Assembly: GCA_910586925.1 (NCBI GenBank) | Contig: CAJUKG010000010.1 | Location: 9,817-73,816 of the forward strand | Reading direction: 5' to 3' | DNA from: an uncultured Christensenellaceae bacterium | GTDB taxonomy: Bacteria; Bacillota; Clostridia; Christensenellales; Pumilibacteraceae | Length of the DNA stretch: 64,000 nt | Shown: one piece after another, positions 24,911-64,000 of the stretch | How the letters are laid out: each line of letters opens with the position of its first letter | How positions within the stretch are numbered: the stretch's first letter is position 1 | Notes under the pieces: model-generated | The model's database searches: none | The model's input: only the letters and a program-made list of their open reading frames with translations | What the model was told of the DNA's origin: nothing | Made by a program: the position numbers and the translations under genes

Positions 24911-26533
24911 TTATTTCTTTTTTCTTTTCGCGCCGTAAGTCTTTGCCGCGGCGATAAACTCGCGGAAGATCGCTTGCGGCTTGGCGGGACGGGACTTGAA
25001 CTCGGGATGATACTGCACGCCGAGATAGAACAGCTTGTCGGTGATCTCCACCGATTCGACAAGATTGCCGTCGGGCGAAATGCCGCCGAGAGTAAGCCCT
25101 GCGGCTTGCATGGGTTCGCGCATGGCGTTATTGAATTCGTAACGGTGACGGTGACGTTCCATGACGGACGCCACGTCCGCACCGTAGCATTTTGCGAGTT
25201 TCGTGTTCGGCTTTATTACGCACTCGTATGCGCCGAGCCGCATAGTGCCGCCCGTGTTCTCGCACCCGACTTGATCTTCCATAATGTCGATCACTTTGTG
25301 CGGGGATGCGGGATCGAATTCGCGGGAATTCGCGTCGGCGATCCCGAGCACGTTACGCGCGTATTCGATGACTATGATCTGCATGCCCAAGCATATGCCG
25401 AAATACGGTTTATCGTTCTCGCGGCAATACTTGGCGGCTGTTATCATGCCTTCTATACCGCGGTCGCCGAATCCGCCCGGCACGATAACGCCGTCGGCGC
25501 AGTCGAGATAGCTCGCGACGGTATCGTCGGTGAGTTTTTCGGCGTCCACCCACTTGAGATTTATTTTAACGCCGTTATGGATACCGCCGTGCGTGAGTGC
25601 CTCTACTACCGAGAGATACGCGTCGAACATCTGCACGTACTTGCCGACGAGCGCGATAGTCACTTCGCCTTTTCTGTCCTTCGCCATTTGCACCATGGCG
25701 CGCCACTCGTCGAGCTGCGGCGGATTGTCGGGAAGATCGAGTTCGCGCGTGACTATATCGCCTATCCCGCTGTCGAGAAGAAGCAGCGGCACTTCGTACA
25801 AAAGATCGGCGTCGCGGTTTTCTATCACGCAATCGGGTTCGATATTGCACGACATTGCGAGCCGTTCTTTGAGTTTTTCGTCGAGCGGCTTGCTCGTGCG
25901 AAGCACTACGAGATTGGGCGAAATGCCGAGCGAGCGCAACGTCTTTACCGAGTGTTGCGTCGGCTTGGTCTTTACCTCGCCGCTCGAAGTGATCGTGGGT
26001 GCGAGCGTCACGTGCACGAACAGACAGTTCTCTCTGCCCACGTCGTTGCTGACCTGACGTATAGCTTCTATAAACGGCAAGCTCTCTATATCGCCGACGG
26101 TGCCGCCTATCTCGGTGATGACGACGTCCGCGTCGATTTTCTTGCCGACCGAATAAATGAACTTTTTGATTTGGCTCGTAATGTGCGGAATGACCTGCAC
26201 CGTTTCGCCGTTGTATACGCCGTCGCGCTCGTTTTGCAGCACGGTGGAATACACTTTGCCGGTAGTGAGGTTGGAAAACTTGTTCAGATTCTCGTCGATA
26301 AACCGCTCATAGTGCCCGAGGTCGAGGTCGGTTTCCGCGCCGTCCTCCGTCACGAACACTTCGCCGTGCTGAAACGGGCTCATCGTTCCGGGGTCGACGT
26401 TGATATACGGATCGAGTTTTTGCGCAATGACCTTAAGCCCCTTTGACTTGAGAATAAGCCCGAGGCTCGCCGCCGTTATGCCCTTGCCGAGTCCGGATAC
26501 GACTCCACCCGTAACAAAAATATACTTTTCCAT
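24911..26533 (-). CDS. pyrG: CTP synthase (canonical copy)
   Basis: [50 protein letters not shown] and VQYHPEF. All catalytic motifs are intact. Confidence 0.93.
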
Positions 26534-29759: not shown

Positions 29760-30617
29760 TTACAGTCTTACCGTGCCTCTGAACACTTCACACGCCTCGC
29801 CCGTCATATACACCGTTTCGTCGGTATAGCGGATTATGAGTTCGCCGCCCGGCAGTCGCACCGAAATATCGGTGTTCTTGTCGCACTTGCCGCCGAGCAC
29901 CGCCGCGACCGCCGCCGCACACGCGCCGCTGCCGCAAGCCATAGTTTCACCCGTGCCGCGTTCGTACACGCGGAGTTTGATATGCGTGCGGTCGATTATC
30001 TGCATGAATCCGACGTTGACGCCCTCGGGGAAAAGCGATTTATCCTCGCCGATGCATTTTCCTATTCCTTCGACGTCGCAGTTTTGCACGTCCGACACGA
30101 CGATCGTGCAGTGCGGATTGCCCATTGACGAACAGGTCACGGCGAACTTGCCTTTCGGCGTGTCTATCTCGCGCTCGACCACCGCGTCGCCGGGAAGATT
30201 TACGGGCACTGCGGCGGGGTCAAGCTCGGCTTTGCCCATATCCACTCTCACCGAATTGACTTTGCCGTCGCGGGCGAACAGCTTGAGCTTCTTCGCGCCC
30301 GACAGCGTATCGACTGTTATATCGAGCTTATCGGTCTTGCCGTTGTCGTACAGGTATTTGCCCACACAGCGAATACCGTTGCCGCACATTTTGCCTTCCG
30401 ACCCGTCGGAATTGAACATGCGCATCGTCGCGTCGCAGGTTTCGGACGGATAAATGAATATCACGCCGTCGCCGCCCACGCTGAAATGTCTGTCCGAAAG
30501 ATTGACCGCGACCGATTCCATATTCGTTATCGGTCTGTTCAAACAATCCACGTATATGTAGTCGTTGCCGCAACCGTGCATCTTGATAAAGTTGAGCCGC
30601 TGCCGCTCGGTGCGCAT
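29760..30617 (-). other. dapF: DapF (diaminopimelate epimerase) module inside the carB reading frame
   Basis: The internal Met at 30617..30615 is in the same frame as carB, and no SD precedes it. Both DapF catalytic Cys contexts (CGNG and ACGSGA) are present. Confidence 0.75.
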
Positions 30618-33600: not shown

Positions 33601-33803
33601 GGCTCTATATAAATGGCGTCCGCCATCGCTTTATCGGTCATGATCGTCGCGGGATTGGAATTGACGAGCACGACTTCCACTTTCTTGCTCTTGAGCGTGC
33701 GGCAAGCCTGTGTGCCCGCATAATCGAATTCCGCCGCCTGACCTATCGTGATAGGTCCCGACCCGATTACGAGTACCTTTTTGATGCTTTTATCTTTAGG
33801 CAT
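29760..33803 (-). CDS. carB: Carbamoyl-phosphate synthase large subunit fused in frame to diaminopimelate epimerase (1347 aa)
   Basis: The first ~1062 aa are a complete CarB (two ATP-grasp halves, oligomerisation domain, MGS-like end ...CLTAIDTANAVARALKSRYSQYNTELVDINN). This continues without a stop into MRTERQRLNFIKMHGCGNDYIYVD...MFNSDGSEGKMCGNGIRC...MGNPHCTIVV...YERGTGETMACGSGACAAA... (DapF). Confidence 0.85.
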   Translation of the reverse strand: MPKDKSIKKVLVIGSGPITIGQAAEFDYAGTQACRTLKSKKVEVVLVNSNPATIMTDKAMADAIYIEPLTVPTLERIILREKPDGILPGLGGQTGLTLSMELAKSGFLAEHGVRLLGVRPETIDKAEDRELFKEAMLEIDQPCIPSDVVTEVDAAVEFANKIGYPVIVRPAFTLGGAGGGIAENEKELREIARGGLELSPIHQALIEKSIYGWKEIEFEVMRDKLGNVITVCSMENLDPVGIHTGDSIVVAPTMTLSDKDFQMLRTAALNIITHLKIEGGCNVQFALDPDSNDYAVIEVNPRVSRSSALASKATGYPIAKVTTLIALGYTLDEITNAVTGKTCACFEPAIDYCVVKLPKWPFDKFVYAKRTLGTQMKATGEVMSIAPCFEAGLLKAVRGALGADTLRNPHYESLSDEQIESMLMPATDYRLFILYEAVRRGFGVEKIAKITRIDPWFLNKIENLVDYENSIENREMTKSEYITGKKLGYPDKALEAISGNKLPMHKRAVFKTVDTCAAEFKAETPYFYSTYDDENEAKEFIEERAGKAKRVIVFGSGPIRIGQGIEFDYASVHCVWELKALGYDVAIVNNNPETVSTDFDTADRLYFEPLTEEDVDNVIATERPYGVVVAFGGQTAIKLTKHLSEKGVRILGTPADSIDAAEDRERFDALLEKLGIARPQGHTVKTTEQALAAGNALGYPVLLRPSYVLGGQNMIIAFSDDDVREYMSIILDGNPDNVVLIDKYVMGTEIEVDAICDGEDILIPGIMEHIERAGIHSGDSIAVYPSQNISDKNKEEIIEYTKQLATALDTKGLVNIQYIISDGKIYVIEVNPRSSRTIPYISKVTGVPMIKLATECMVGKKLKKLGYGTGLYPSAPYVAVKVPIFSFEKLTDLDTHLGPEMKSTGEVLGVGKTLDEALYKGLVAAGYKMKRRGGILLTVRDTDKSEIANVAKNYYELGFELYATEGTAEVIRRSGMNVTVAAKLNECPGENTMSLLNSGKIDYLVSTSTRGRIPTHDDVRLRCRAVARGIPCLTAIDTANAVARALKSRYSQYNTELVDINNMRTERQRLNFIKMHGCGNDYIYVDCLNRPITNMESVAVNLSDRHFSVGGDGVIFIYPSETCDATMRMFNSDGSEGKMCGNGIRCVGKYLYDNGKTDKLDITVDTLSGAKKLKLFARDGKVNSVRVDMGKAELDPAAVPVNLPGDAVVEREIDTPKGKFAVTCSSMGNPHCTIVVSDVQNCDVEGIGKCIGEDKSLFPEGVNVGFMQIIDRTHIKLRVYERGTGETMACGSGACAAAVAAVLGGKCDKNTDISVRLPGGELIIRYTDETVYMTGEACEVFRGTVRL

Positions 33804-40305: not shown

Positions 40306-43300
40306 TCAGAACTCGTCGGGATTAAATCCGTCGGGGCTTGCGGGAGGCGGGTTGCCGCCGTTCGGAGCCGTCGGCTGTGCCGGCGGAACATTGCCCTGTT
40401 GCGGGGGCGGAGTGCTGCCCGATCCCGCGTTCAGCTGCAAGCTGTTCGGCGTGGGATTGTTCGCGCTTCCGCCGAGCATAAGCCCGGGATCGTTGACGGT
40501 CTGCTGCATAGGCGGCAGGTAGCCGAACGATTGATACGGTGCCGAGCCGCCGCTGCCGAGCCGCATCATTTCTTCTTCAAGCTCGATTTCGGCGTTGAGA
40601 AGCGACTCGATCTCTCTGCGCATCTTGCGCTTCTTGCATACGACAACGATTATGACGATGAGCAGTATGATGAACAGCAGTATCGCCGCGACTATGATCC
40701 AGAACCACATCCAGTTCGCTTCGATGAGCGAAATGGTGCTCTCGAACCAAGACTGTTCGGGCGCGTCGTGACACATGACCGTTATGGTCATATCGTACGA
40801 TCTGCCGGAGCTGTCGCTGACCTTGAGCGAAATGTCGGACGAACCGCGTCTGTTGAACTTGAGCAGTATGAACGCTCTGCCACCGTCGGCAGCCGTGTCG
40901 TAATCGAGCAATGCTTCCACTATTACCGACTGCGATGTGACGACAGGCGTGAGGAACGTCATTATGTCGTCTTTATCGGTATCTTCGAACCAATCCTCGG
41001 GATAGACCTTGAGCGTGCGATTCACGGGATCGGTAAGCATATTGACGGTATACTCGTAAACGGTTTTTTCGCCGCCCGCGTCCTTTTTGTATTTAGGCGG
41101 AGTATTGACGGATACCGTGATCGGCAAAATCCTCTTGACCGACACGCTGCCTGCCGCGAACTCCACTTCGAGTTTTACGGAAGCACCCTCGGTGCGGGCG
41201 TAAATGCGCCATTCGTCAATATCCGCGCCGCTTGCCGACGTCAACGCTTGCGTCGAACCGGGAGCGAAAACGGAAAGCTGCGGATTGCCGCCGTCGGTCA
41301 CTTCGGTGATCGACTTGATCGTATAGCCGCGCGCCTTATCGCCGAGCAGATCCTCGGTCGTGACGGTACGCGTAACGCCGTATGCGATGGAAATGGGTTC
41401 AAGCTCGTCGGCTACGTCTTCGAGCGGATCTGCGACCGTGATGTACAGGTTAAGCTCGAACACTTTGCCGTCCTGTATGCCCGCAGCCGAGCCGTCCTCG
41501 TAACCGCTGTCGACGATCGTGAGAGTCACCTTTTGGAAACCGTACAAGCCCGCGACCTGCGTTACGGTGAACAACTGATGCTGCGCGTTGTCGGCTTTCC
41601 AGTCGATATAGCACAGCGTGTCGGAAGTGTATTCGGTGTTGCCTTCCTCGTCGGTGTGCATGAGGTTGGGACCGTACATGATAGGCGCGTCCTCGCCTTC
41701 TTCGTGTCTGTCGTAAACGAGTATCGAGTCGATAAACGCGTAAGTAGGCGTGCGCTCCGCGTACTGCGGATCGTCGGCGCGGTAGTTATCGCCGTTGTCG
41801 TCCGCAATGAAGTCGAGAATACTGAAAGTCTTTACCGCATTGCCGACGTCCTCCTCGGTCGCGTCCTTGCCGAGACCCATGAGCGTGATATGCGTATCAA
41901 TGCCGGGCTTGAGCTTGGGCGCGATATTATCGACGGTCACGTTGATCGTGAGAATATCGGTAACGGCACCGCGCACCGAGTCGCGCAAACGCAGTTGGCA
42001 AGTTCCCACTTCGCCGCGCAGTGTGGACACGCACGTGAACATGATCTTGTCGAGCGTCGTGAGTCCGTACGCATTGCTCGTATCGCTTGTTTCGATATTG
42101 AACAGCGTGACGCCGTTGCCGTTCTTGAGTTTGCCGACTTTGCTGCTGTTGCCCATTTCGTCGACCGAACCCATAAGATTGCCGTCGCTCATTATAAGAC
42201 TCGTTTCGGTCGCGGTATTGAGCAACACGTACTTATCCATATCGACGTCGGCATCATTGATTATATCGGCGATGCGCACGTTGAGTTTGGACCCGCGCTC
42301 GACGGTGGCATTGAGGACATACCCGGTGTCGTCGGTGTACGTGAGCGAATAGCCGAGCCGCAGGATATCCGAAGAATCGGTTACCGTCTTGAGTTCGGGA
42401 ATATCGTTCTCGACACGAACGGTGATCGTGGTTTTGACAAGGTTCTTGTTGTTGGAAATACCCGAGCGCACGCCGATGGTATCCGCGCAGTATATATCCA
42501 CGCTGACGTCGGTATACGATACTTCGTTGCCGTTCGGATCGGGATTGCCCGTAAACACCTTGCGGTTGATCTTAATGGTGATCGACTTGCCGTCGCCCGA
42601 CGGAGTGACCGACAGAACGTCGCCCTTGCCTTTTACGGTTTCGTTTATGCCGCGGAATTCCGCACGGACATAGTTGATCGACTCCAAACCGCCGCTCGTG
42701 CTCGGATTGCGAATGAGGTCGTAATCGTAGAACAAGCCGAGTTCGGAATCCTGCGTGTCGTACAAATTCCAAGTGAGCGAGTCGCCCGCCGTACCCGTAA
42801 ACCGCAGGAACGACGATTCGCGGAGGCGCATTTCGCCTTCTTCGCCGGACGGAACTCTCGGATAGCCGGAGTTGAACGGCGATTCGGCGACCGCGACGAG
42901 CGCGGAGTTGGCAACCGACACGTTTGCAAACGCCGTCTTCATATCCATGGGACGGTCATTCTCGTCTCTGTAATCTTTTACAAGCTCGATATAGAGTTGT
43001 ATGTTCGCAAGCGCGGCATTGTTTTTCTCGGGCGAAATAGTAGCCGAGTTGGGAATGAATTCCAAAGTCTTGCCGTCTGCGGACAGCGACACCGAGAAGA
43101 AGCGCGAAACGTATGTCGCGACCTCGCCGTATCCGGGTTGAATAGACGAACCCTCGACGGAAACGAGCAGGCACGAATCGCGATCGAAATCGTCGCTTGT
43201 GTGACGGATCGGCTCGAAGTTATTCTCGCCGCGTTTGACAAGAAGCGCGTAGACATTGACGTCGTACTTCGCCGACGGCGCAGCGACATCGGAGTCGGAG

Positions 43301-46300
43301 AAAAGTTTCGCGTCGCTTCCCGCCGCAACGAGATCTATCGTAACGGGCTGACCGTCCTTGACATACTCGGCATAGCTCTTAAGCTCGAGCGACAAATCGC
43401 GGTCTTGCGTCGCTATCGTTCTTACCTCGCGAGGTTTGATCTTAACGCGAATGGTTATGAACTCGGACACTGCGCCGTGCATATCCGCTACGCGGAAAGT
43501 GACCGACGAGTACAAGCCCGCGCGGTTCATGTAATCGGTAGCCTTTATAACTATCGAAGTTACGGACTGTTCGGTTTTGCTCTCTACCGATATAGCCGAA
43601 ACGCCTTGCGGGTTGTTGATAGTAAAGCTCGTATTGTCTACGCCCTTGTACACGGACAGATGATATTCGTCGTCGCGGTCCACGTCGGTCATAAAGCCGT
43701 AATCGCCGCCGAGGTCGAATTCCTTCGTTTCGTCGTAATCGAGAGCTATTTCGTAGGTATTGGGAATGACGTTGTGGCTGTCGTCGTACGCCACTTCAAG
43801 CCCCGCGGGAAGATTATTGAGCTTCGCGGTAGGCGCGGTGGACACGACCGAAATATTGATATTGATTTCGACTTTAACGCCCAAACCGTCCTGCAACGTG
43901 ACTGTATACACCGTATTTACAACAGCTTTCGCGGTGACGGTGACGCTCATGGGTCTGCCGACGCTGCCGTCCTCGCAAAGATACATGGCACCCGTCGAAT
44001 ACGAGAACAGATCCACGTGGTTGATATCGGAGAACGTTTTGTAGTCGACGATACGCAACGTACTCGCCGCGTCGTCGCTGCCGATTATAAGCCCGCCGAG
44101 ATGTTTGCTCGCGCTGCTCTCTCCCGAAGAATCGTAGAGAAATGCGGTCGCGAGTTCCGCGGCATTCTTGTCGGGACGCTCGTGCGGCGTGCCGTTGACG
44201 TAATTGTAAACATAGCCGCTGTTGCCCTTCCACGAATTGAATCCGCCGCGCACGTCGCTGTCGAACTTACTGTGGTCTGCCGCGTACAGCGTGAAGCTGT
44301 CGCCCGTGCGCATGACGATGCTGATGGATTCGGATCCGCCGAAAGTATCGCTATTCGCAGTCGGAGCTTCGTTGTTGTACGAAACGGTAAACACTACGGA
44401 CATCGTATTGTCCCGCACACTGTCGGAGAACGTATACATTACGCTGACGGGATTCTTGAACGCGGAGTCAGCCGAGAACATTATCGTGGATTCCGACATG
44501 CCCGAATCCTCGGGAGCGGATCCTATAGTGATCGGCAATTCGCCCGTCGGGTCGATCTTTCTGAACGACGTCGGCATTACGAGGTAATCGCGGGTATACT
44601 TCTCCTCGTCCGTGAAGTTCGCATCGGATACCGAGAACGACGAGCCGTCGAGCTTGATGTCGTTATCGAGCAGCAACGACGATACGTCGATAAAGAAGTC
44701 CGCGCCGCGCGACAGCTTGAACTTGTATTCGGGCACATACGTACCGCCGACGTTTATCGTGTTGATGACGCCTTTATCGTTTTGGAACATTTTGGGGTTG
44801 ATACGAAGCTCGTCGTTGCGTATATACACTTTGAGCACCGTAACGAACCAGAACCCTTCCGTCAACGACGAGCCGTTGACCTCGTCGAAGAACAGGACGC
44901 GGAACGGATAATAAATACCGTTCTTGTCTTCTTTCAGATGATACTCGGCAAGAATGTCCTCGCGCTGTTGAGTAGTAGTGCCCTCGGGGAAAGACAGCTG
45001 CGTCTTGGCTTTGGGAGTAAACTGAATGGAGGACGATCTGCCGTCCTTGGGCGAAACGTCGAAGAACTTGTCGTAACCGGGGTTCGGCACGTACTGTTCT
45101 TTGTACTTATCCATAGAGATCGTTTCGCCGTCTACTTCCACGGTTTCGCCGTAAGATACGTCGTAGTACATCTTGAACGCCGCAGATTTCTGACCGCCGG
45201 AATTGGAATCAATGGTAATATAATCGCGTTCGTCCTTCGACATACCGCCTACTACGTTGCCTTTATCGTCTACGGTAGCCGTGGCGGACGACATGAGGAA
45301 CTTCATGACGTCGCCTTTATCGGCGTCGTCGTATGTGATATAGCAGTCGCCTGTCGGCGTGGGAACGAGGTTGCCGTTATCGTCCTCGACGGGGTTGCCG
45401 TCGCGAAGCACGAGCGTCTTGCCCTGCGTGTCGCTCGTCGTCATGGACAATCTCATCGTATCGGTACCGCTGTCTATCGGCGTTACTACTTCGGTCTCGT
45501 CGACATACTTGAGCGACGGAGCCGCATTCTTGAGAATGATATCCACCTCGGCGTATTCCACGGCACTGCCGATAAGCTGATTGTCGTTGAATGCCGTCGT
45601 TTTGAGCGCGACGGTGAGTTTGAGACGATTGCGCGCGCGCTCGCCGCCCGGTTTTTTCTCGAACGTAAGACCGTATTTATCCTCGCGGTAAATACTCTTG
45701 CCGTTGACGATACTCGTGATCGGGTTGCGGTTAAGACGGGTAGAATCGTCGGAAGTGCTGATCGTGTAACGTTTGTCGTTGAGATACTTGGTCTTATCGC
45801 TCGCGACATAGCTGCCCGTATTCGCTTTGTATCCGATGGTGATATACGGGTTATTATTGAGCGTCGCGCCCGACCAGGTATTGCCGTCTATATCCGAAAG
45901 CGTGAGGTTTTCGAACACGTAACCGAGAGTTTGGGGATTATTGCCCCAGGTAGAGTACATGGAGTCGGAAAGCACGAGGTTGTTCTTGGGATCGAGCGGA
46001 CCCGCCGTCGCGTTCGCGAACGTGACGTGCTCAACGCTCTGACTGTCCGTCGAGGTCGACGCGCGTTTCGGCATAGCGATATAACTAATAGGCACTTCGG
46101 TAACGCCGCCGCCTATGCCCGCAGCTTCTATCTCGATCGGACGGTAATAGAACGCGTTCGACGCGTCGGGATAGCACTTGTAAGTTACCTCTACTTTTTC
46201 CTTTCCTGCGACCGTGCGGGAAATGGTTTTAACGAAATACTGATACTTAAAGTCATCGGCGAACGTAGCCGATTGCAACGTAGTCTGATTTGTAGGGATG

Positions 46301-49300
46301 TCGCCCTCGAACTGATAATTTTTGTCGGTGGCGAAACCGTTATAATCGACGGCGTAAAAAGTATTGCCATTGTCGTCGGTCTTGATCGCGGTGTTGGCTT
46401 CCAGATTACCGTCGGTGCGATAATAAGTATGCATAACGGTAATACCGGGAGATTTGTATTCGTAATCGAAGTTGAGCACCAACGATGCGGACTTACCTGT
46501 CGATTTCACAGTCTTGTCGGCATTGTATACGGGGACGTCATGGTGATTGTCTTTTATGGATATCGCGATCGTGGCGGGACCGTACTGCTCCTCGCTGTTT
46601 CCGCTGTCTACGATCTCGATAGCCCAAAACTGCGTCGTCTTGACGCGTTCGTCGGCGGCTCCGAGTTCGGTAAATACCACATTGCCGTGTTCGTCCGTTT
46701 CGCGCACATAGAATATCACTCGCAAGCTCAAGTGCGTGTTGCCGCTGTTGTCGTTCACGTATGTGGGCGTGTACAAAATCGCGGCGTTCGGATAGCTCGC
46801 AAACATTGCATCGGTCGGTTTTTCGCCAACGGGCTTCACGAGCGCGGCGACCGCGCCGTTTATATTATCGCTCCACTTCAAGGGATTGAGCATTGCGTTC
46901 TCTCTGCCGTCCGTATCGGAGAACAGATACTGTATGTTCGACGCACCTGCGGCTTTAGGATTGGCGTTGTACAATTCTTCGCTGTTGTAGATATACCGCG
47001 CGACGCGAAGCTCGGCTTCATCCTCGTAACCTATCTGCCACGCATAAACGTCGTTCTCGGTATCTTTAAGCGTGAGCGAGTCTGTGACGAAAACAGGTTG
47101 CGCGTTATTCACGTGAATAAGCACGTGCAAATTATCCCATTTCGGTTGCGCGCGGAATCCGTCCTGCACGCCTACCTCGAGGTAAATGGGCACCGAGAAA
47201 ATTTCCGTGGACGAAAGTGCGGTCACCTGCACGACGTCCTCGCCGTATTCGTTCTTGGTGAACTGCGCGTGCGCATACTCGGAGAGAATGTATTTGCCGT
47301 CCGCCGCGCCGACGAATTTTCCGGTGGCTTCGTTATAATCGAGCCGATCGTAATACTCGTCGCCGATCTTGGCTACTATTCTCGCACTGCCCGCGATAAA
47401 CGTCGGGATGTCGCCGTCCTTGTCGTACGCGATCTCGCGCGTCGTGAACATATACGAGTTGCGGACTTTGGTGCCGAGTTCGGTAGTCATGATGTACGGC
47501 TCGACAATGCGCTTATCTTCCTCGTTCTCTTTGGGATGGTTTTTCTCGGTGTTGAGCATAGGCGCGGAGTTGTTGACGACTATCGTAACGAGGCAATCGG
47601 TGCTCGAGAAACCGTCCGTCACGGTGAAGCGCAACTGCACGACCGCCGAAGTGGTACGCGATACGCCGACGATCTTGATGCACGGCACCATGTATTCCGC
47701 ACCGCCCGCGACAACGCACTTATTTTCCGCCGTAGCGGCGATATAACCTGCGTACTGCTCTGCGTTCGCTCTGAAATTGTCGAGATTGGTGAACGAAAGG
47801 TTCTGCAGCTTCACGCCCGTCGCCTCGGTTGCGGGTGCGGACGGCGAAGCAGTATGCGGGATATTGTATTGGTGATTGAGGAACTGAGCAACGCTCGGGA
47901 ATTCCTCGTCGACGGGGTTGGTATTGTACTTGATCGAGCCTGCGTTCATGGCGTTCAAAACGGTATTATCGCAGTCGACGTCGAAATCGTACACCAAATC
48001 GTACGGCGTGATCTGAAGCACGTCGTTGCGCTCTATGTAATAGTTGACAGCCACGGCGTTGATGCTCGGGTTGTACATGAACACGTTTTTGGTGTCGTTG
48101 CTTTTCCTGTTCGCGTTCGCCAAATTGATTTTGTAATCGAACGTCGCGGAGTCGTCGCCCATGCCCTGATACGAACTGCGACGGGCTTGCACCGCACGGT
48201 TGTCGACTTTTATGCACACGCGCACCGTGTTCTTGGCGTCGTGCGAGTCTTTTACCTTGACGTCGAATTGGAAGTATTCCCCGTTCGTCGAACGCTTGGG
48301 CGTGATCTTAAGACCGTAGAACGCGTAGCAGTCGCCGTGTTCGCGCACGCCGAAAGACTCGAGCTGAGTCTTATTCATCGAAAGCCGAGAGAATACCGTT
48401 TTGCTCGCGTACAGCTCGATGCGTTCTACCGTGTAGAATGCCGCGGTGTCGTAAGCATTTATGATATTGTCGATGCTCGTACCGTCGAGCATGACTATAT
48501 CGTTGAGAGCGCGGGTCTTGTCGTTGCCCTCGCCCGAATATATGAACGTATCGGGGTCTATCGTAAACGGCAAAGCGTGGTCCGCGTCTTTATCCGAAGT
48601 ATATTTGTTAAGCGCGTCGTCGGGGCTGCCGATACCTCGCACAACGCCGTCGCTTCCGACATAGCTCACGGGCGTGAGAACGATGCTGCGGCGGGGCTCG
48701 TTTTGCCGCGCGTCGCTGCCGACGCCGTCGTTGGTGACGGGTGCGCCGGGAACGAACGTGTCGTTAAAGTCGAGAGTGAAGTTCGCAACCGTAGGCGTTT
48801 CGGCGGGTTTTGCCGAAGTTACGCGAATGGCTATAGGGAACCAAATGCCGTCGTCGCTCACGTCGGACGGGTCTATGACGCGCACCATAATGTAGAAGTC
48901 GCCGAGCCGTCCCGACTGACCGTACATATACTGCGTCGATGCGCGCGGGGTGAACCTGATCACTTTGTTGCTGTCGAAACTGTACGTAACGGCGGCATTC
49001 GCGGCACCCGAGCTACCCGTCGCGGCGATCAGATCTTTCTTGAATCCCGTCGCGGTTATACCCTCGCCCGACTTGGAAGAAATGTTCTCGCCCGTATCTT
49101 GAACGGACGTTCTGTTATAGTAGTTACTCGGAGTGTTGCCGATCTTGTCGCGAAGCGGCACTTCGATATTGGACGCGTCCACCTGAATATATTCGTTGGT
49201 GGGGATCTTAACGTCGCCCGCGAAGTACGCGTTAAGCGAATTGCCGTCGTCCAAATCCTTGATCATGGTCGAAATATCGAGCGTCACGGACGCGCCGCCC

Positions 49301-51378
49301 GATTCAAGCTCGATATACGGTTCCGCCATGCCTTCGACCATGGTGGACGAAGCGAAGTACGGACGGGTGTTCGCCAAGCGGAACACGAGCTGTACCGCCG
49401 AGTTCTGCGAGCCTATGACCGCTTTTGTGTTGGTTTCGCTCGTCTGCGCATATATCGTCGCACAAACGTAAACCGCGCCGTTGGGTCTGATGTTAGTCGG
49501 TTTAATCGTTATCGAAGGCGCAACGCCCGACGCATAATCAGAACTCGTGTTGTACGAAATACTGTAATATTGCGAATATTGCGAATACGCGGAAAGCGGG
49601 GTTATCGTGCGGAACCCGACTTTATCGTAATTCGTATCGAGATCGTCGAAAATGTCTTTCGCGTAAATGGTATACCCCGCCGTATCGGTAGGTGCGATAG
49701 GCTTGGGAAGGAATACCGTTTTTATATGCGAACCGTCGGTGTAATTGGGATTGTAAATACTGCCGGGCGTACCCATATAGTTGCCGCCGACATTATTGGA
49801 AGTAGCATCGCCGTAACGGTATTCGTAAGATTTACCGCCCGAAGAATATGTGTGCGTCGAGGCATCCGCCTTCGGCGTGATCGCCCTGTCGTTGACTACG
49901 AGATAGAAAAGTATCGTACTCGTACCGCGCGTCGCCGTAGCACCGAAATCATCGCGCATTTTTACGTAAAGCGGAAGTTTGCCGTTTGTCGAGGCATAAC
50001 CGTCGCCCGCACGCGGGTATTTTTTGATCTCCGTTATGCGAAGCGTGGACTTACTCTGCCAATTCCAGCTTAAATATGAACTCGCGGAAACAGTGCAACC
50101 CGAATTGAGCCACAAGCCCGCATTCGCGCTCGGCAAGGCGTCGAAATTGCCGCTCGTGCCATTGGAATAGAATACGTTATTGGTGTTGCCGCCCGAAATA
50201 TTGGTGTAATCGGGGTCGTATGCGATCGTACTCGCCGCTATGTCTATATTGCGCGACGTGCCGCGATAGTAGTTCGCGGACGAGGCGTTCTGAATTGTCG
50301 TGCCGCCGTTTCTCGCCGTCGGACCTTGGTTGACCGAAACGACCTGAATTGTCGCCTTACCGTTGCCCGATTGGGTACCGTTACTGCCACCGCCAGAAAG
50401 TCCCGATTTGATGTGACCGGAACCGCCGCCGCCGCCCGTTCTGCCGTCCGCACCCGAGCCGTTGGAGTCGCCGCCGCCACCGCCGCCGCCGTACCAGCCG
50501 CCACCGCCGCCGCCGCCTGCTTCGTAACCGCCCGAGTAGCTGGCACCGCCGTGACCGAAATAGCCGGCTTGACCTGTAACAGGACGACAGTCGGAAGCAC
50601 TTGCGCCTCTGCCTGCGCTACCGCCTTGGTTTGATTTGCCGCCGCTTGCCTGATATCCGCCGCCTGTAATATAACCGCCCGACGACGAGCCGCCGTTATT
50701 GTTCGCGCCGCCGCCGTAACCGCCCTGACCGTAAGAACCGCCATGCGCGTTTGTGGTAGAACCGCCGCCGCCGCCCGCAACGACAAGCACTTTCGCTTGG
50801 TTTGTCGTAGAGCTCAAAGCATCGAGAGTGCCCTGCGCAAGAGCCATATGCGTCGCGCCGCCGCCGCCGCCGCCGCCGTTTGCACGGTCGACACTGCCGC
50901 CGCCGTTATAGCCGCCGCTTTTTGCGCCGCTCGAACCCGACGCTCCTTGCCCGCCGACATATATGTATATATACTCGCCCGAAGTGGAAGTGACGTTATA
51001 TGTGGCATAGGTATAACCGCCTTTGCCGCCGAGACAGGAATTCACATAATACCCGCCCTGTGCGCCCCAGACTTGAAGCGTATACTGACCGCGCGGCAGT
51101 TTAATTTGGTAATAGCCGCTCGTCTTAAACGAATAGTTTATAACGTCGCCGTTCTTCAGCGCACCCGGTGCAGTTTGGTCGTTCTGAAGATTGGAGTACG
51201 TCGTACTCGTCAAAGCGTCGCCACCGCCTACTTCGTCGCGGTCGACGATCGGCGATTCGACGTTGATGCACAACGCACACACGATCGCCACCGCTATCGC
51301 GGTGAAGATCGAGGCGACAAGCACTATCACCCGTCGCAAGATATTCGTATTACCGGTTCCGTTCGTATGATTTTTCAT
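40306..51378 (-). CDS. Giant surface protein (3690 aa): N-terminal TM/signal anchor, ALK/LTK-like glycine-rich domain, many cadherin-like/Ig-like modules, C-terminal TM, Pro-rich cytoplasmic tail
   Basis: GAGGTGA RBS and ATG at 51378. N-terminal hydrophobic stretch: ILRRVIVLVASIFTAIAVAIVCALCINV. The glycine-rich domain covers aa ~78-350. At least 13 acidic loops of the cadherin/dystroglycan-type occur (YDPDYTN, DDLDTNYD, DLDDGNSL, IDPDTF, YDFDVDCDN, YDKDGDIPTF, FSDTDGRE, YDDADKGDVM, LDNDIKLDG, TDVDRDDEY, INDADVDMD, ADDNGDNY, FEDTDKDDIMTF). The C-terminal hydrophobic stretch WMWFWIIVAAILLFIILLIVIIVVVC is followed by KKRKMRRE and then 100 further residues. Confidence 0.9.
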   Translation of the reverse strand: MKNHTNGTGNTNILRRVIVLVASIFTAIAVAIVCALCINVESPIVDRDEVGGGDALTSTTYSNLQNDQTAPGALKNGDVINYSFKTSGYYQIKLPRGQYTLQVWGAQGGYYVNSCLGGKGGYTYATYNVTSTSGEYIYIYVGGQGASGSSGAKSGGYNGGGSVDRANGGGGGGGATHMALAQGTLDALSSTTNQAKVLVVAGGGGGSTTNAHGGSYGQGGYGGGANNNGGSSSGGYITGGGYQASGGKSNQGGSAGRGASASDCRPVTGQAGYFGHGGASYSGGYEAGGGGGGGWYGGGGGGGDSNGSGADGRTGGGGGSGHIKSGLSGGGSNGTQSGNGKATIQVVSVNQGPTARNGGTTIQNASSANYYRGTSRNIDIAASTIAYDPDYTNISGGNTNNVFYSNGTSGNFDALPSANAGLWLNSGCTVSASSYLSWNWQSKSTLRITEIKKYPRAGDGYASTNGKLPLYVKMRDDFGATATRGTSTILFYLVVNDRAITPKADASTHTYSSGGKSYEYRYGDATSNNVGGNYMGTPGSIYNPNYTDGSHIKTVFLPKPIAPTDTAGYTIYAKDIFDDLDTNYDKVGFRTITPLSAYSQYSQYYSISYNTSSDYASGVAPSITIKPTNIRPNGAVYVCATIYAQTSETNTKAVIGSQNSAVQLVFRLANTRPYFASSTMVEGMAEPYIELESGGASVTLDISTMIKDLDDGNSLNAYFAGDVKIPTNEYIQVDASNIEVPLRDKIGNTPSNYYNRTSVQDTGENISSKSGEGITATGFKKDLIAATGSSGAANAAVTYSFDSNKVIRFTPRASTQYMYGQSGRLGDFYIMVRVIDPSDVSDDGIWFPIAIRVTSAKPAETPTVANFTLDFNDTFVPGAPVTNDGVGSDARQNEPRRSIVLTPVSYVGSDGVVRGIGSPDDALNKYTSDKDADHALPFTIDPDTFIYSGEGNDKTRALNDIVMLDGTSIDNIINAYDTAAFYTVERIELYASKTVFSRLSMNKTQLESFGVREHGDCYAFYGLKITPKRSTNGEYFQFDVKVKDSHDAKNTVRVCIKVDNRAVQARRSSYQGMGDDSATFDYKINLANANRKSNDTKNVFMYNPSINAVAVNYYIERNDVLQITPYDLVYDFDVDCDNTVLNAMNAGSIKYNTNPVDEEFPSVAQFLNHQYNIPHTASPSAPATEATGVKLQNLSFTNLDNFRANAEQYAGYIAATAENKCVVAGGAEYMVPCIKIVGVSRTTSAVVQLRFTVTDGFSSTDCLVTIVVNNSAPMLNTEKNHPKENEEDKRIVEPYIMTTELGTKVRNSYMFTTREIAYDKDGDIPTFIAGSARIVAKIGDEYYDRLDYNEATGKFVGAADGKYILSEYAHAQFTKNEYGEDVVQVTALSSTEIFSVPIYLEVGVQDGFRAQPKWDNLHVLIHVNNAQPVFVTDSLTLKDTENDVYAWQIGYEDEAELRVARYIYNSEELYNANPKAAGASNIQYLFSDTDGRENAMLNPLKWSDNINGAVAALVKPVGEKPTDAMFASYPNAAILYTPTYVNDNSGNTHLSLRVIFYVRETDEHGNVVFTELGAADERVKTTQFWAIEIVDSGNSEEQYGPATIAISIKDNHHDVPVYNADKTVKSTGKSASLVLNFDYEYKSPGITVMHTYYRTDGNLEANTAIKTDDNGNTFYAVDYNGFATDKNYQFEGDIPTNQTTLQSATFADDFKYQYFVKTISRTVAGKEKVEVTYKCYPDASNAFYYRPIEIEAAGIGGGVTEVPISYIAMPKRASTSTDSQSVEHVTFANATAGPLDPKNNLVLSDSMYSTWGNNPQTLGYVFENLTLSDIDGNTWSGATLNNNPYITIGYKANTGSYVASDKTKYLNDKRYTISTSDDSTRLNRNPITSIVNGKSIYREDKYGLTFEKKPGGERARNRLKLTVALKTTAFNDNQLIGSAVEYAEVDIILKNAAPSLKYVDETEVVTPIDSGTDTMRLSMTTSDTQGKTLVLRDGNPVEDDNGNLVPTPTGDCYITYDDADKGDVMKFLMSSATATVDDKGNVVGGMSKDERDYITIDSNSGGQKSAAFKMYYDVSYGETVEVDGETISMDKYKEQYVPNPGYDKFFDVSPKDGRSSSIQFTPKAKTQLSFPEGTTTQQREDILAEYHLKEDKNGIYYPFRVLFFDEVNGSSLTEGFWFVTVLKVYIRNDELRINPKMFQNDKGVINTINVGGTYVPEYKFKLSRGADFFIDVSSLLLDNDIKLDGSSFSVSDANFTDEEKYTRDYLVMPTSFRKIDPTGELPITIGSAPEDSGMSESTIMFSADSAFKNPVSVMYTFSDSVRDNTMSVVFTVSYNNEAPTANSDTFGGSESISIVMRTGDSFTLYAADHSKFDSDVRGGFNSWKGNSGYVYNYVNGTPHERPDKNAAELATAFLYDSSGESSASKHLGGLIIGSDDAASTLRIVDYKTFSDINHVDLFSYSTGAMYLCEDGSVGRPMSVTVTAKAVVNTVYTVTLQDGLGVKVEININISVVSTAPTAKLNNLPAGLEVAYDDSHNVIPNTYEIALDYDETKEFDLGGDYGFMTDVDRDDEYHLSVYKGVDNTSFTINNPQGVSAISVESKTEQSVTSIVIKATDYMNRAGLYSSVTFRVADMHGAVSEFITIRVKIKPREVRTIATQDRDLSLELKSYAEYVKDGQPVTIDLVAAGSDAKLFSDSDVAAPSAKYDVNVYALLVKRGENNFEPIRHTSDDFDRDSCLLVSVEGSSIQPGYGEVATYVSRFFSVSLSADGKTLEFIPNSATISPEKNNAALANIQLYIELVKDYRDENDRPMDMKTAFANVSVANSALVAVAESPFNSGYPRVPSGEEGEMRLRESSFLRFTGTAGDSLTWNLYDTQDSELGLFYDYDLIRNPSTSGGLESINYVRAEFRGINETVKGKGDVLSVTPSGDGKSITIKINRKVFTGNPDPNGNEVSYTDVSVDIYCADTIGVRSGISNNKNLVKTTITVRVENDIPELKTVTDSSDILRLGYSLTYTDDTGYVLNATVERGSKLNVRIADIINDADVDMDKYVLLNTATETSLIMSDGNLMGSVDEMGNSSKVGKLKNGNGVTLFNIETSDTSNAYGLTTLDKIMFTCVSTLRGEVGTCQLRLRDSVRGAVTDILTINVTVDNIAPKLKPGIDTHITLMGLGKDATEEDVGNAVKTFSILDFIADDNGDNYRADDPQYAERTPTYAFIDSILVYDRHEEGEDAPIMYGPNLMHTDEEGNTEYTSDTLCYIDWKADNAQHQLFTVTQVAGLYGFQKVTLTIVDSGYEDGSAAGIQDGKVFELNLYITVADPLEDVADELEPISIAYGVTRTVTTEDLLGDKARGYTIKSITEVTDGGNPQLSVFAPGSTQALTSASGADIDEWRIYARTEGASVKLEVEFAAGSVSVKRILPITVSVNTPPKYKKDAGGEKTVYEYTVNMLTDPVNRTLKVYPEDWFEDTDKDDIMTFLTPVVTSQSVIVEALLDYDTAADGGRAFILLKFNRRGSSDISLKVSDSSGRSYDMTITVMCHDAPEQSWFESTISLIEANWMWFWIIVAAILLFIILLIVIIVVVCKKRKMRREIESLLNAEIELEEEMMRLGSGGSAPYQSFGYLPPMQQTVNDPGLMLGGSANNPTPNSLQLNAGSGSTPPPQQGNVPPAQPTAPNGGNPPPASPDGFNPDEF

Positions 51379-61243: not shown

Positions 61244-62806
61244 TTAGCAAATAACTTTGATGAATTCCGAGAATATCGGGTTGGTATTGAGCAGTCGCGA
61301 ATGATATTCGGGACTGAATATCGTGCCGATAAAGAATTTGTTTGTCGGGATCTCGTACGCTTCGGGTACGCCCGTCGGCGAATGTGCCGAGAACACCAAA
61401 CCGTTCTTCAGGAAAAGCTGTTCGTACGTATCCGAAAAATCGTATCTGTGACGGTGACGCTCGCTAACCGTTTGCTCGCCGTAAATCTTACTTAAATACG
61501 TGCCCGGCGTGATCATCGTGGGGAACGCGCCTTTCTTGAGCATGGGCGGCTCGACGCTGCGCACGACGCTGTAAGGCGTATCGGTATTGAATTCCTGCGA
61601 ATCGGCGTCCGCCATGCCGCACACGTCGCGTGCGAACTCGACAAGCCCCGCCTGTGCGCCGAGTCCTATAAGCAGGCACGGCACGTCTTTCTCGCGCGCA
61701 TATTTAGCCGCGGCGATCTTGCCGTCGAATCCGCGCACGCCGAAGCCCGGCGCGATAACTATTCCCGCGTACCCGTCGAGCACGCTCGGGTTTTCCGCAA
61801 CCGACTCCGCCGATACGAGCGCGATGTCTATTGCGATATTCTTGAGCAGCCCCGCCGTCTTGAGCGCGTCCATGAGCGATTGATACGCCGTCGCTTTCTC
61901 GACGTACTTGCCGACGAGCGCGATATTGATGCGTTTATCGGAATTCGCGGCACTCTCGGCACGCTCGCACATTTCCCGCCACGCGTCGAGCTTGGGTTCG
62001 CGCACTTCCATTTTGAGCTTGGTAAGCGCGACGCCCTCGAAGTTTTGCGCATGCAGTCGCAACGGGATCCGGTACAGATTATCAGTCGTGACGCTCTCTA
62101 TTATCGACTTGCAGTCCACGTTGCAGAACAGCGACAGCTTTTTGATCGCCGCCTCGTCGAGCGCGTAGTCCGACCTGCAAACGATTATGTCGGGCAGTAT
62201 GCCTATGTTTTGCAGTTCTTTGACCGAGTTCTGCGTCGGTTTCGTCTTATGCTCGCCGCTCATTTCGATGACGGGCACATATGTAACGTGCACGTACACC
62301 GAATTGCCCTTGCCGAGCGCGACCTTACATTGCCGTATAGCCTCGAGATACGGGTGGTTCTCTATATCGCCGACGACACCGCCGATCTCGCACACTACGA
62401 CGTCCGTTTCGGGCTTGTCGAGCCGCTTGAGCGTGCGAATGATCTCGCCCGTGATATGCGGAACGACCTGAACGGACTCGCCGCCGTACGCGCCCTCGCG
62501 CTCGCGTTGAATGACCGCCGAATATATCTTGCCGCTCGTAATGTTGCTGTTTTCGGACAGGTTCTGGTCCAAAAACCGCTCGTAGTGTCCTATAACGAGA
62601 TCGCCCTCTCCGCCGTCCTCGGTTACGAACACTTCGCCGTGCTGATACGGACTCAAGTACAGCGAGTCAACATTGAAGTACGGGTCGAACTTCACCATAT
62701 CGACCGTGTAACCCTGCGCCTTGATGAGCATAGCCATGCTCGCCGCGGTAATGCCTTTGCCGAGTCCCGATACGACCCCGCCTGTGATAAATATGAATTT
62801 TGACAT
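61244..62806 (-). CDS. CTP-synthase paralog with degenerate active sites (glutaminase Cys and His absent)
   Basis: It aligns over the full length with the copy at 24911..26533 ([31 protein letters not shown]). However, GICLGMQ becomes LIGLGAQ (Gly codon at 61664..61666), YHPEF becomes FSPEY (Ser codon at 61313..61315), DLDLG becomes DLVIG (Val codon at 62594..62596), and DPGTMSP becomes DSLYLSP. Confidence 0.85.
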   Translation of the reverse strand: MSKFIFITGGVVSGLGKGITAASMAMLIKAQGYTVDMVKFDPYFNVDSLYLSPYQHGEVFVTEDGGEGDLVIGHYERFLDQNLSENSNITSGKIYSAVIQREREGAYGGESVQVVPHITGEIIRTLKRLDKPETDVVVCEIGGVVGDIENHPYLEAIRQCKVALGKGNSVYVHVTYVPVIEMSGEHKTKPTQNSVKELQNIGILPDIIVCRSDYALDEAAIKKLSLFCNVDCKSIIESVTTDNLYRIPLRLHAQNFEGVALTKLKMEVREPKLDAWREMCERAESAANSDKRINIALVGKYVEKATAYQSLMDALKTAGLLKNIAIDIALVSAESVAENPSVLDGYAGIVIAPGFGVRGFDGKIAAAKYAREKDVPCLLIGLGAQAGLVEFARDVCGMADADSQEFNTDTPYSVVRSVEPPMLKKGAFPTMITPGTYLSKIYGEQTVSERHRHRYDFSDTYEQLFLKNGLVFSAHSPTGVPEAYEIPTNKFFIGTIFSPEYHSRLLNTNPIFSEFIKVIC

Positions 62807-62839
62807 AATGTAAGCTGAAAGCCTTCCTCCTGTCGTATT

Positions 62840-64000
62840 TTACTTATGAACGGAAAAACCGATTTCCTTGAGTTTCTTTGCGTTGTACTCGACGACGTCG
62901 AGCAGTCTGTCGAATATCCTCTGCGCGTCCGCGCGTTCGGGCAGCGACCGCGAAGCATTGCTGTCGGTATTGTCCGAGTGCGCGAAGAAATTGCGTTGCG
63001 AGAAATACTCGGTATAAAGCGACACAAGCACTTCGGGATATATAACGCTGTCTATGCGCCGCAAATACCCGCTCTTGAGCACGTACCTGCCGCTGTCGTC
63101 CTTGTCGAACGCTTGACCTATCATCTTGACATTTATATTCTCCGCGCTTTGCAGGTCGAACACGAACCGTTCCAAACCGCGGAATGCGGGCACGAGCAAC
63201 ACCGAATAGTCGGAAAGATGCAAGTCTTTTTGATCGAAGTCGTGTATGCCGTACGAAAAATCTATCCGCGACTGCTCCGACAAAAATCCGTATGCCGTCG
63301 GCAACCGCTTCTTGAGCTTGTTTTGCACGTCGGACACTTTGTTCCTGCCGCGAGCGGGATTGCCGCCGTCCGACTTTTCCACATAGTTCTCGAGCGCGGA
63401 CGAATAATCGCTGTCGTGACTGACCTGCGCCATGACCTCGCCGAAAAGCTCCGAACGCTTGCCCTGAAGCTGTAAAGTCATGCGCTTTGTCGCATACCGC
63501 AAAATCACCTTTTGCCCGCTGCCGTCGGTCACCGTGTACGCCTTGAGCTCCTGCGGCGTGCCGCCGAACTCGACGCCGTCCAAAATGACCGTCTTGCCGT
63601 AATCGCGCAACCTTCTGACCGCGCCGCCGAGCGCGTCGGGCGGATAGTTCTTTACCGAATATCCGTTCTTGTATTCGGGCAGTTTGTCCTGTTTCGCGCC
63701 GAGTTCCTCGCGCGCCGCAACGTCCGACTTTTTGGGTCTGCCGCGACCGCGCTTTTGCTGTTCGCCTGCGGGCGAATTTTCTTGCGGCGGGTTTTGCTGT
63801 TGCGATTTATTCGGCGACGCGTTTTCCTGCGGTTTGTTTTCCGACTTTTTGGGTCTGCCGCGTCCGCGTTTTTGCTGTTCGCCCGATTGCGCGGGTTGCT
63901 GCGCAGACTGCTGTTTTGTTTGTTGCTGTCCGCCGATCTGCGGCTTGTCCTGCGATACCGACGTGCGCGTGGATATCTTGATCGCGGTCTTGGGCGTTTT
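62840..64000 (-). CDS. RnlA/LsoA-like HEPN-domain protein with an N-terminal AT-hook region (5' end outside the window)
   Basis: The track ORF 62840..63610 begins at a TTG, but the frame stays open to nt 64000, reading KTPKTAIKIS...GEQQKRGRGRPKKSENKPQ...GEQQKRGRGRPKKSDVAAREE.... A TBP-like module follows (KVILRYATKRMTLQLQGKRSELFG), then a helical C-terminal domain with LVPAFRGLERFV and QRNFFAH (R-x4-H, nt 62978..62995). The family call comes from motif memory, not a search. Confidence 0.65.
   Translation of the reverse strand, partial: KTPKTAIKISTRTSVSQDKPQIGGQQQTKQQSAQQPAQSGEQQKRGRGRPKKSENKPQENASPNKSQQQNPPQENSPAGEQQKRGRGRPKKSDVAAREELGAKQDKLPEYKNGYSVKNYPPDALGGAVRRLRDYGKTVILDGVEFGGTPQELKAYTVTDGSGQKVILRYATKRMTLQLQGKRSELFGEVMAQVSHDSDYSSALENYVEKSDGGNPARGRNKVSDVQNKLKKRLPTAYGFLSEQSRIDFSYGIHDFDQKDLHLSDYSVLLVPAFRGLERFVFDLQSAENINVKMIGQAFDKDDSGRYVLKSGYLRRIDSVIYPEVLVSLYTEYFSQRNFFAHSDNTDSNASRSLPERADAQRIFDRLLDVVEYNAKKLKEIGFSVHK

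Follow-up and report, generated by a model that had tools for sequence, protein, structure and literature searches.

A conserved subfamily of probable CTP synthase-derived pseudoenzymes lies beside an RnlA-type RNase gene in gut Clostridia

The cytidine triphosphate (CTP) synthase (CTPS) PyrG belongs to a family that is among the most conserved enzymes known. In Escherichia coli, the ribonuclease (RNase) gene precedes the gene of its partner in both rnlA-rnlB and lsoA-lsoB, and rnlB is an antitoxin gene. In RNase L and Ire1, dimerisation and activity of the HEPN-type RNase are under the control of a nucleotide-binding, kinase-type fold that is catalytically dead or dispensable. Here we describe a stretch of 64,000 nucleotides (the window) from an uncultured Christensenellaceae bacterium (contig CAJUKG010000010.1, positions 9,817 to 73,816, assembly GCA_910586925.1), in which a CTPS-derived paralog, copy 2, follows a gene for an RNase of the RnlA/LsoA family. 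The same window holds a canonical pyrG, copy 1. The positions of all features are collected in Table 1.

Copy 2 matches the Pfam families CTP_synth_N (E 3.7e-110) and GATase (E 2.5e-16), scores above the curated NCBIfam equivalog cut-offs (648.6 bits against 308 for NF003792, and 613.2 against 462.75 for TIGR00337), and is 45% identical to copy 1 from end to end. A first-pass annotation, made from the sequence alone, had proposed that copy 2 carries glycine in place of the catalytic Cys379, serine in place of His515, valine in place of Asp72, an altered VPGGFGDRG segment and DSLYLSP in place of DPGTMSP, while retaining the P-loop, KTKPTQ and EIGG motifs. We aligned copy 2 with CTP synthases of solved structure and with E. 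coli PyrG, assigning its columns against Thermus thermophilus 1vcm and E. coli K-12 PyrG (NC_000913.3) and using E. coli numbering throughout, and the assignments held. Glycine and serine (Ser498 of copy 2) stand in the Cys379 and His515 columns of both references, the oxyanion segment reads IAPGFGVRG with proline at Gly351, the valine and the altered loop fall where they were expected, and the three motifs are kept. Because the alignment is ungapped around all motifs against three references, displaced or misaligned catalytic columns are excluded.

The 2.5 Å structure of the Drosophila enzyme gives these columns a meaning: the residues equivalent to E. coli Lys18, Lys40, Asp72 and Glu140 lie around the phosphate that is transferred, the ammonia tunnel is made up of residues 50-58, which also contact guanosine triphosphate (GTP), the wing loop holds GTP, and uridine triphosphate (UTP) is bound by D40/D152/E154/K192-K194 in Drosophila numbering (PMC8325340). 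Copy 2 has K18, K40 and E140 of the synthase-site set and has lost Asp72. Neither the glutaminase triad Cys379-His515-Glu517 nor the oxyanion pair Gly351-Gly352 is intact, and the GTP-activation elements (the wing, and the tunnel and GTP-contact loop 49-58) are gone, with F353, R356 and R468 still present.

These changes extend well beyond one gene. Searching 5.8 billion proteins with a word index brought up about 100 clusters that are 48-100% identical to copy 2, all of which share its changes. After adding the copies from 50 genome loci, we tallied 153 clade members against 132 canonical enzymes. Valine occupies the Asp72 column in 152 of the 153 members and glycine the Cys379 column in 152 of 152; D72, C379 and H515 are each present in all 132 canonical relatives. 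The former glutaminase pocket has been rebuilt to M-I-G-L-G-A-Q (G377 to M/L, M382 to A, I384 to A), G351 has become P, A or S, D240 to T is fixed, PGTM(49-52) has become [ST][SL][YNH]L, and where the wing GG(T/S)MRLG (436-442) stood there is now a variable PPM(F/L)KKG, behind a deletion of about seven residues. The His515 column is free (arginine in 44 of the 153, asparagine in 40, histidine in 31, glutamine in 31, with serine also occurring); its loss does not define the clade, the column being simply unconstrained.

Other positions have hardly moved. The UTP/CTP-binding residues S14, D42, Q114, D147, E149, K187-Q192 and K223 are each retained in at least 97% of the 153 members, as are K18, K40, H57, E59, G142, G143, G146, R211, F353, E403, R468, P516 and E517. 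Asp70 is kept, and variation is minor at E140 (E or D), R356 (146 of 153) and R470 (R or K). Sites invariant specifically in this clade include M377, A382, A384, Q199, C210, K263, F358 and K361, and the reading frame is intact in all 153 relatives. Judged by these residues, the route from glutamine through ammonia (NH3) and the tunnel to GTP activation is dismantled clade-wide and one phosphoryl-transfer residue is lost, with the nucleotide pockets preserved.

The fold has been kept along with these pockets. An AlphaFold2 (AF2) model of copy 2 has a predicted local distance difference test score (pLDDT) of 89.2 and a predicted template modeling score (pTM) of 0.88, with low confidence only in the altered 41-60 loop and in the 141-150 loop, and superposes on E. 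coli CTPS (8i9o, 1s1m) with a template modeling (TM) score of 0.95. The ratio of nonsynonymous to synonymous substitution rates (dN/dS), estimated at saturated dS, is 0.08-0.14 for the window's copy 2 against 12 orthologs and 0.03-0.07 among closer pairs. Within this lineage the paralog has diverged further than the canonical orthologs: identity between the window and Anaerocaecibacter muris is 90% for copy 1 vs 83% for copy 2, and for Pumilibacter intestinalis the figures are 73% vs 54%.

The D72V/C379G clade is monophyletic with support of 100 both in FastTree (173 rows) and in IQ-TREE under LG+C20 (68 rows), and it falls within Firmicutes CTPS, nesting beside the canonical enzymes. In a profile search of 1.84 billion representatives at 50% identity, the clade appeared as two clusters scoring 884-897 bits, and the next match scored 675. 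Its nearest sisters, P0110 and P0274/P0313, have lost Cys379 and kept Asp72, which is also present in all 108 fully canonical representatives. Other homologs without Cys379 are spread over the tree, requiring about ten changes, which suggests that the glutaminase was lost repeatedly. Full-length metagenome homologs with G, S, D or N at Cys379 and with Asp72 present are P0110, P0255, P0256, P0263, P0267, P0271, P0273-P0275, P0279, P0284, P0288, P0313, P0323, P0332, P0337 and P0363; they may work as NH3-dependent synthases or have been repurposed in other ways.

Copy 2 thus combines what is looked for in a pseudoenzyme, namely a retained fold, lost catalytic residues, purifying selection and an active-type paralog alongside. 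We conclude that it probably represents an old, strictly conserved subfamily of CTPS-derived pseudoenzymes in gut Clostridia, one that has kept the full two-domain fold. The first-pass annotation had judged the fold to be preserved, had suggested that a phylogeny might reveal a distinct clade, and had read copy 2 as a glutaminase-dead pseudoenzyme or nucleotide binder of doubtful phosphoryl-transfer chemistry. The model and both trees agree with it, and the clade-wide losses, the invariant UTP/CTP and P-loop residues and the strong purifying selection support that reading. It was too narrow in treating copy 2 as one odd copy of what is a whole conserved family, and in counting among the defining losses His515, whose column is unconstrained; its list also omitted the GTP-activation wing.

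The gene directly upstream of copy 2, whose 5' end lies beyond the window, matches Pfam RnlA-toxin_DBD (PF19034) at 33.1 bits against a gathering threshold of 27. In its full-length orthologs, a disordered P/Q/K-rich linker joins a conserved domain at the N-terminus to a HEPN (Dmd-binding) domain at the C-terminus, and the motifs RGLERF and RNF(F/Y)xHSDN are invariant in 30 ortholog sequences. A profile of these orthologs matches LsoA (5hy3) with E 7e-12, aligning both the R..E and the R-x4-H motifs. When we modeled a 388-residue ortholog with AF2, the top ten Foldseek matches in the PDB were all RnlA or LsoA (E 1.7e-8 to 5.8e-5); the disordered linker keeps the global TM score down, at 0.35. 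The window's protein carries two AT-hooks in this linker, a feature confined to its subclade and missing from the P/Q/K-rich linker of distant orthologs, which hints at association of the protein with DNA or the nucleoid. Neither the RNase gene nor the large protein encoded upstream of it has a match in NCBIfam.

The two genes are consistently paired. Using the RNase as query and keeping one genome per species, we obtained 58 loci, in 48 of which a CTPS-like gene lies immediately downstream of the RNase gene; the pair can be seen, for example, in L001, L003 and L005. The spacer measures 8-130 nucleotides in 46 species, too short for another open reading frame, and no small RnlB/LsoB-like antitoxin gene therefore sits directly downstream of the RNase gene in these. 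In two loci the pair is interrupted by another gene, which encodes a radical-SAM/SPASM protein in L028 (L028:6035-7864) and a double-ABC (ABC-F-like) ATPase in L064 (L064:5540-7030). The CTPS-like copy of L064 is the most divergent, at 41% identity, and has leucine in the Asp72 column.

The surrounding order is a large Ig-like protein, the RNase, the CTPS-like protein, an optional ABC transporter and a convergent purA. The first of these genes, encoding about 1150-1290 amino acids with only weak Ig-like/OmpL47-type matches, is directly upstream of the RNase gene in 47 of the 58 loci (for example L001:1818-5258 and L003:3134-6688), falls beyond the edge of the window and may belong to the same unit as the pair. 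Convergent purA follows in at least 27 of 58, a count limited by flank length. The same neighborhood recurs across species whose CTPS-like proteins are only about 50% identical, and such stable synteny argues for vertical inheritance. Both loci examined for the sister types, P0110 and P0274, lack an RnlA-like neighbor; the genes beside them are unrelated and encode DUF6414 at one locus and a C-terminal fragment of alanyl-tRNA synthetase at the other. Coupling to the RNase is thus specific to the D72V clade, and we reject the idea that it is older than the D72V change. It had gone unnoticed when copy 2 was first annotated, leaving that picture incomplete in the very feature that points to a likely function.

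Carriers of the pair are gut Clostridia of mouse, rat, chicken, rabbit, ruminants and termites, labelled as members of the Pumilibacteraceae/Christensenellaceae group, and include the cultured strains Anaerocaecibacter muris CLA-AA-M11, Pumilibacter muris CLA-AA-M08 and P. intestinalis CLA-AA-M10. The window sequence itself occurs in mouse-gut metagenomes. One mouse-gut metagenome-assembled genome, MGBC159740, contains a 1.6-kb contig (L029, CAJULK010000088.1) matching the window's pair at 100% identity over the stretches that align, together with a second pair, 77% identical, on the long contig L023; two related species have probably been binned together.

What might a disabled CTP synthase do beside an RNase? 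The explanation we favor, to which we give about even credence, is that copy 2 is a pyrimidine-nucleotide-binding pseudoenzyme serving as a regulatory or scaffolding partner of the RNase and linking RNA cleavage to nucleotide status. The two genes would be co-transcribed, as the short, terminator-free spacer suggests, and the copy 2 protein would no longer make CTP. Its conserved residues suggest that it binds UTP/CTP, and perhaps a glutamine-like ligand in the rebuilt former glutaminase pocket; F353, R356, E403, R468 and R470 of the former glutamine/GTP pocket are still present in the family. Ligand-bound copy 2 would then regulate or scaffold the RNase, tying RNA cleavage to the state of the pyrimidine-nucleotide pool, and the likely route would be control of the dimerisation state of the HEPN domain. 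More tentatively, copy 2 might be the dedicated sensor subunit, for UTP/CTP or for glutamine, of a "metabolite-gated" RnlA-type HEPN RNase that is fixed in the chromosome and has a housekeeping role, making global RNA decay responsive to pyrimidine or nitrogen status across a whole order-level lineage of gut Clostridia. Such a sensor subunit would be without precedent as a CTPS pseudoenzyme and would found a new class of RnlA partners.

Several observations weigh against a regulatory partnership of this kind. Gene adjacency is the only link between copy 2 and the RNase, the proposed UTP/CTP binding is deduced solely from conserved residues, and Asp70 and Glu140 remain in place, which may permit residual or altered phosphoryl chemistry. 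In RNA from metatranscriptome-type runs, a few short contigs lay over copy 2 and none crossed the junction with the RNase gene. In about 8 of the 58 loci the RNase gene has no adjacent CTPS-like gene, or its contig ends too soon; loci of the former kind indicate that the RNase can exist without a partner nearby. In L036 and L039, convergent purA directly follows the RnlA-like gene and the CTPS-like gene is absent at the locus, an arrangement that either is ancestral or arose when the paralog was lost, and that bears on the RNase's need of a partner.

A toxin-antitoxin or anti-phage module, with the RnlA-like RNase as toxin and the CTPS-like protein as an unusually large antitoxin or sensor that frees the RNase when a phage perturbs nucleotide pools, would fit the intact HEPN catalytic motifs, the tight coupling of the two genes and their order, which mirrors rnlA-rnlB and lsoA-lsoB. 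We nevertheless think it unlikely. The pair lacks the patchy, mobile distribution typical of such modules: with the Ig-like protein gene and purA syntenic, it occupies one stable chromosomal neighborhood across CTPS-like proteins of only about 50% identity, as expected of vertically inherited core genes and not of mobile islands. A slowly evolving partner of 520 residues is also unlike labile antitoxins, the RNase occurs without an adjacent partner in some species, and PADLOC returned no significant model for the RNase or for copy 2.

It is rather improbable that the adjacency is incidental and that copy 2 is instead a non-catalytic regulatory subunit of canonical PyrG, co-assembling with it in tetramers or filaments. 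Both kinds of assembly are known for CTPS enzymes from PDB entries, canonical PyrG was always available in the genomes examined, and the clade conserves the tetramer-interface glycines G142, G143 and G146 together with most of the synthase-domain surface. Yet the gene is never beside pyrG or carB and is consistently beside the RNase gene, the two copies are only 45% identical, and co-assembly leaves unexplained why the rebuilding of the former glutaminase pocket is conserved.

The invariance of K18, K40, H57, E59, D70, E140 and the KTKPTQ/DIE site, which is more than mere binding might need, would be accounted for if copy 2 were an active enzyme with altered chemistry, either an ATP-grasping ligase or kinase acting on another substrate or an NH3-dependent aminating enzyme whose metal is bound by Asp70 and Glu140. 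The replacement residues V72, G379, A382 and T240 are invariant too and suggest a specific new pocket. We regard this as distinctly improbable: Asp72, which contacts the transferred phosphate (PMC8325340), never varies among the 132 canonical enzymes or the 108 fully canonical representatives; the glutaminase was lost along with the tunnel loop and the wing, so that the route from glutamine through NH3 to UTP is gone; and the literature we searched offered no precedent. Finally, although several catalytic residues have gone at once, a decaying, functionless duplicate is rejected as scarcely credible, given intact frames with the same substitutions fixed in 153 relatives, dN/dS of 0.03-0.14 at saturated dS, and conservation of both the synteny and the ribosome-binding site.

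Our searches of the full-text literature found no description of a bacterial CTPS pseudoenzyme or non-catalytic CTPS subfamily, and nothing connecting CTPS with RnlA or HEPN proteins. Two things are new here: a CTPS subfamily that is predicted to be non-catalytic, and a putative new partner in an RnlA-type module. Public records label the relatives of copy 2 "CTP synthase", and with the equivalog cut-offs passed as well, pyrG is over-counted in pyrimidine-pathway reconstructions of these gut bacteria. The fixed pairing would add a new class of partner to a family of nucleases known until now from work on toxins in phage defence, and suggests that RNA cleavage may be gated by a repurposed metabolic-enzyme fold. 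The scatter of independently glutaminase-dead homologs in metagenomes suggests in turn that CTPS has been repurposed repeatedly.

Copy 1, with all its catalytic residues, is predicted to supply the housekeeping CTP synthase activity, and a canonical pyrG was found in the same genomes as the paralog wherever genomes were examined. In relatives, pyrG lies directly after carB. In the window, a gene for a 906-residue TIR/LRR/TPR protein separates it from carB (29760-33803); compared with Anaerocaecibacter muris-like relatives, this gene looks inserted, and the insertion is possibly defence-related. Elsewhere in the window, a giant open reading frame of 3690 amino acids (40306-51378, minus strand) has an ALK/LTK-type glycine-rich domain near its N-terminus as its sole Pfam match.

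Table 1. Positions of the features discussed, in window coordinates; residue columns follow E. coli numbering.
Feature	Position	Strand	Description
CTPS-derived paralog (copy 2)	61244..62806	-	520 amino acids; synthase and GATase-like domains, predicted to be catalytically disabled
TIFSPEY in place of VQYHPEF	61304..61324	-	Ser498 (61313-61315) in the His515 column; Pro516-Glu517 retained (Glu500 in copy 2)
EPPMLKKG	61529..61552	-	degenerate remnant of the GTP-activation "wing" (canonical GG(T/S)MRLG), preceded by a deletion of ~7 residues
LLIGLGAQ in place of FGICLGMQ	61652..61675	-	Gly381 (GGA, 61664-61666) in the Cys379 nucleophile column
DLVIG in place of DLDLG	62594..62596 (GTT codon)	-	Val71 in the Asp72 column (Mg2+/phosphoryl-transfer residue)
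DSLYLSP loop in place of DPGTMSP	62648..62668	-	ammonia tunnel segment and GTP contact; low pLDDT in the AF2 model
Spacer between RNase gene and copy 2	62807..62839	-	33 nucleotides; GGAGGA ribosome-binding site; no terminator
RnlA/LsoA-family HEPN RNase gene	62840..64000	-	5' end beyond the window edge
RNFFAH (R-x4-H)	62978-62995	-	HEPN motif of the RnlA-like RNase
RGLERF (R-x2-E)	63164-63181	-	HEPN motif of the RnlA-like RNase
Two KRGRGRPKK AT-hooks	63728-63754, 63845-63871	-	disordered linker of the RnlA-like protein
Canonical pyrG (copy 1)	24911..26533	-	540 amino acids, all catalytic residues
TIR-domain + BspA-type LRR + TPR protein	26917-29637	-	906 amino acids; low-GC stretch, 0.44-0.48 vs ~0.54

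Set beside known systems, the copy 2 family is closest to PyrG (E. coli P0A7E5; PDB 1s1m, 5tkv; T. thermophilus 1vcm), with which it shares length, two-domain architecture, 40-45% identity and a TM score of 0.95, as well as the P-loop, K18, K40, H57, E140, the UTP/CTP site (D147-I-E149, K187-Q192, K223) and the interface glycines. It differs in having Cys379 changed to Gly, Gly351 to Pro, Ala or Ser, Asp72 to Val, Asp240 to Thr and PGTM to S(S/L)(Y/N/H)L, in its free His515 column, in having lost the wing, with a seven-residue deletion, and in its context, an RNase gene instead of pyrimidine biosynthesis. Other glutaminase-dead CTPS-like proteins (P0110, P0274, P0255, P0275) resemble it in being full-length homologs with G, S, D or N at Cys379; unlike copy 2, they keep Asp72 and mostly a PGTM-like loop, and could still be NH3-dependent synthases.

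The pair as a whole resembles RnlA-RnlB and LsoA-LsoB of E. coli (PDB 4i8o, 6y2p, 5hy3). In each, the upstream gene encodes one or more TBP-like N-terminal domains and a C-terminal HEPN domain, the upstream RNase has the same R-x2-E ... R-x4-H constellation, and the partner gene lies directly downstream, in the position of rnlB or lsoB. Here, however, that partner is a CTPS-derived protein of 520 residues and not an RnlB/LsoB of about 120, the disordered P/Q/K-rich linker of the RNase is long and, in the subclade of the window, carries AT-hooks, and the locus is stable and vertically inherited, not a mobile module. RNase L and Ire1 offer an analogy only, with no homology claimed, in that a dead or dispensable nucleotide-binding enzyme fold accompanies a HEPN RNase; there the modules are fused in one eukaryotic, kinase-derived polypeptide, whereas here they are encoded by separate bacterial genes and the putative sensor derives from CTPS.

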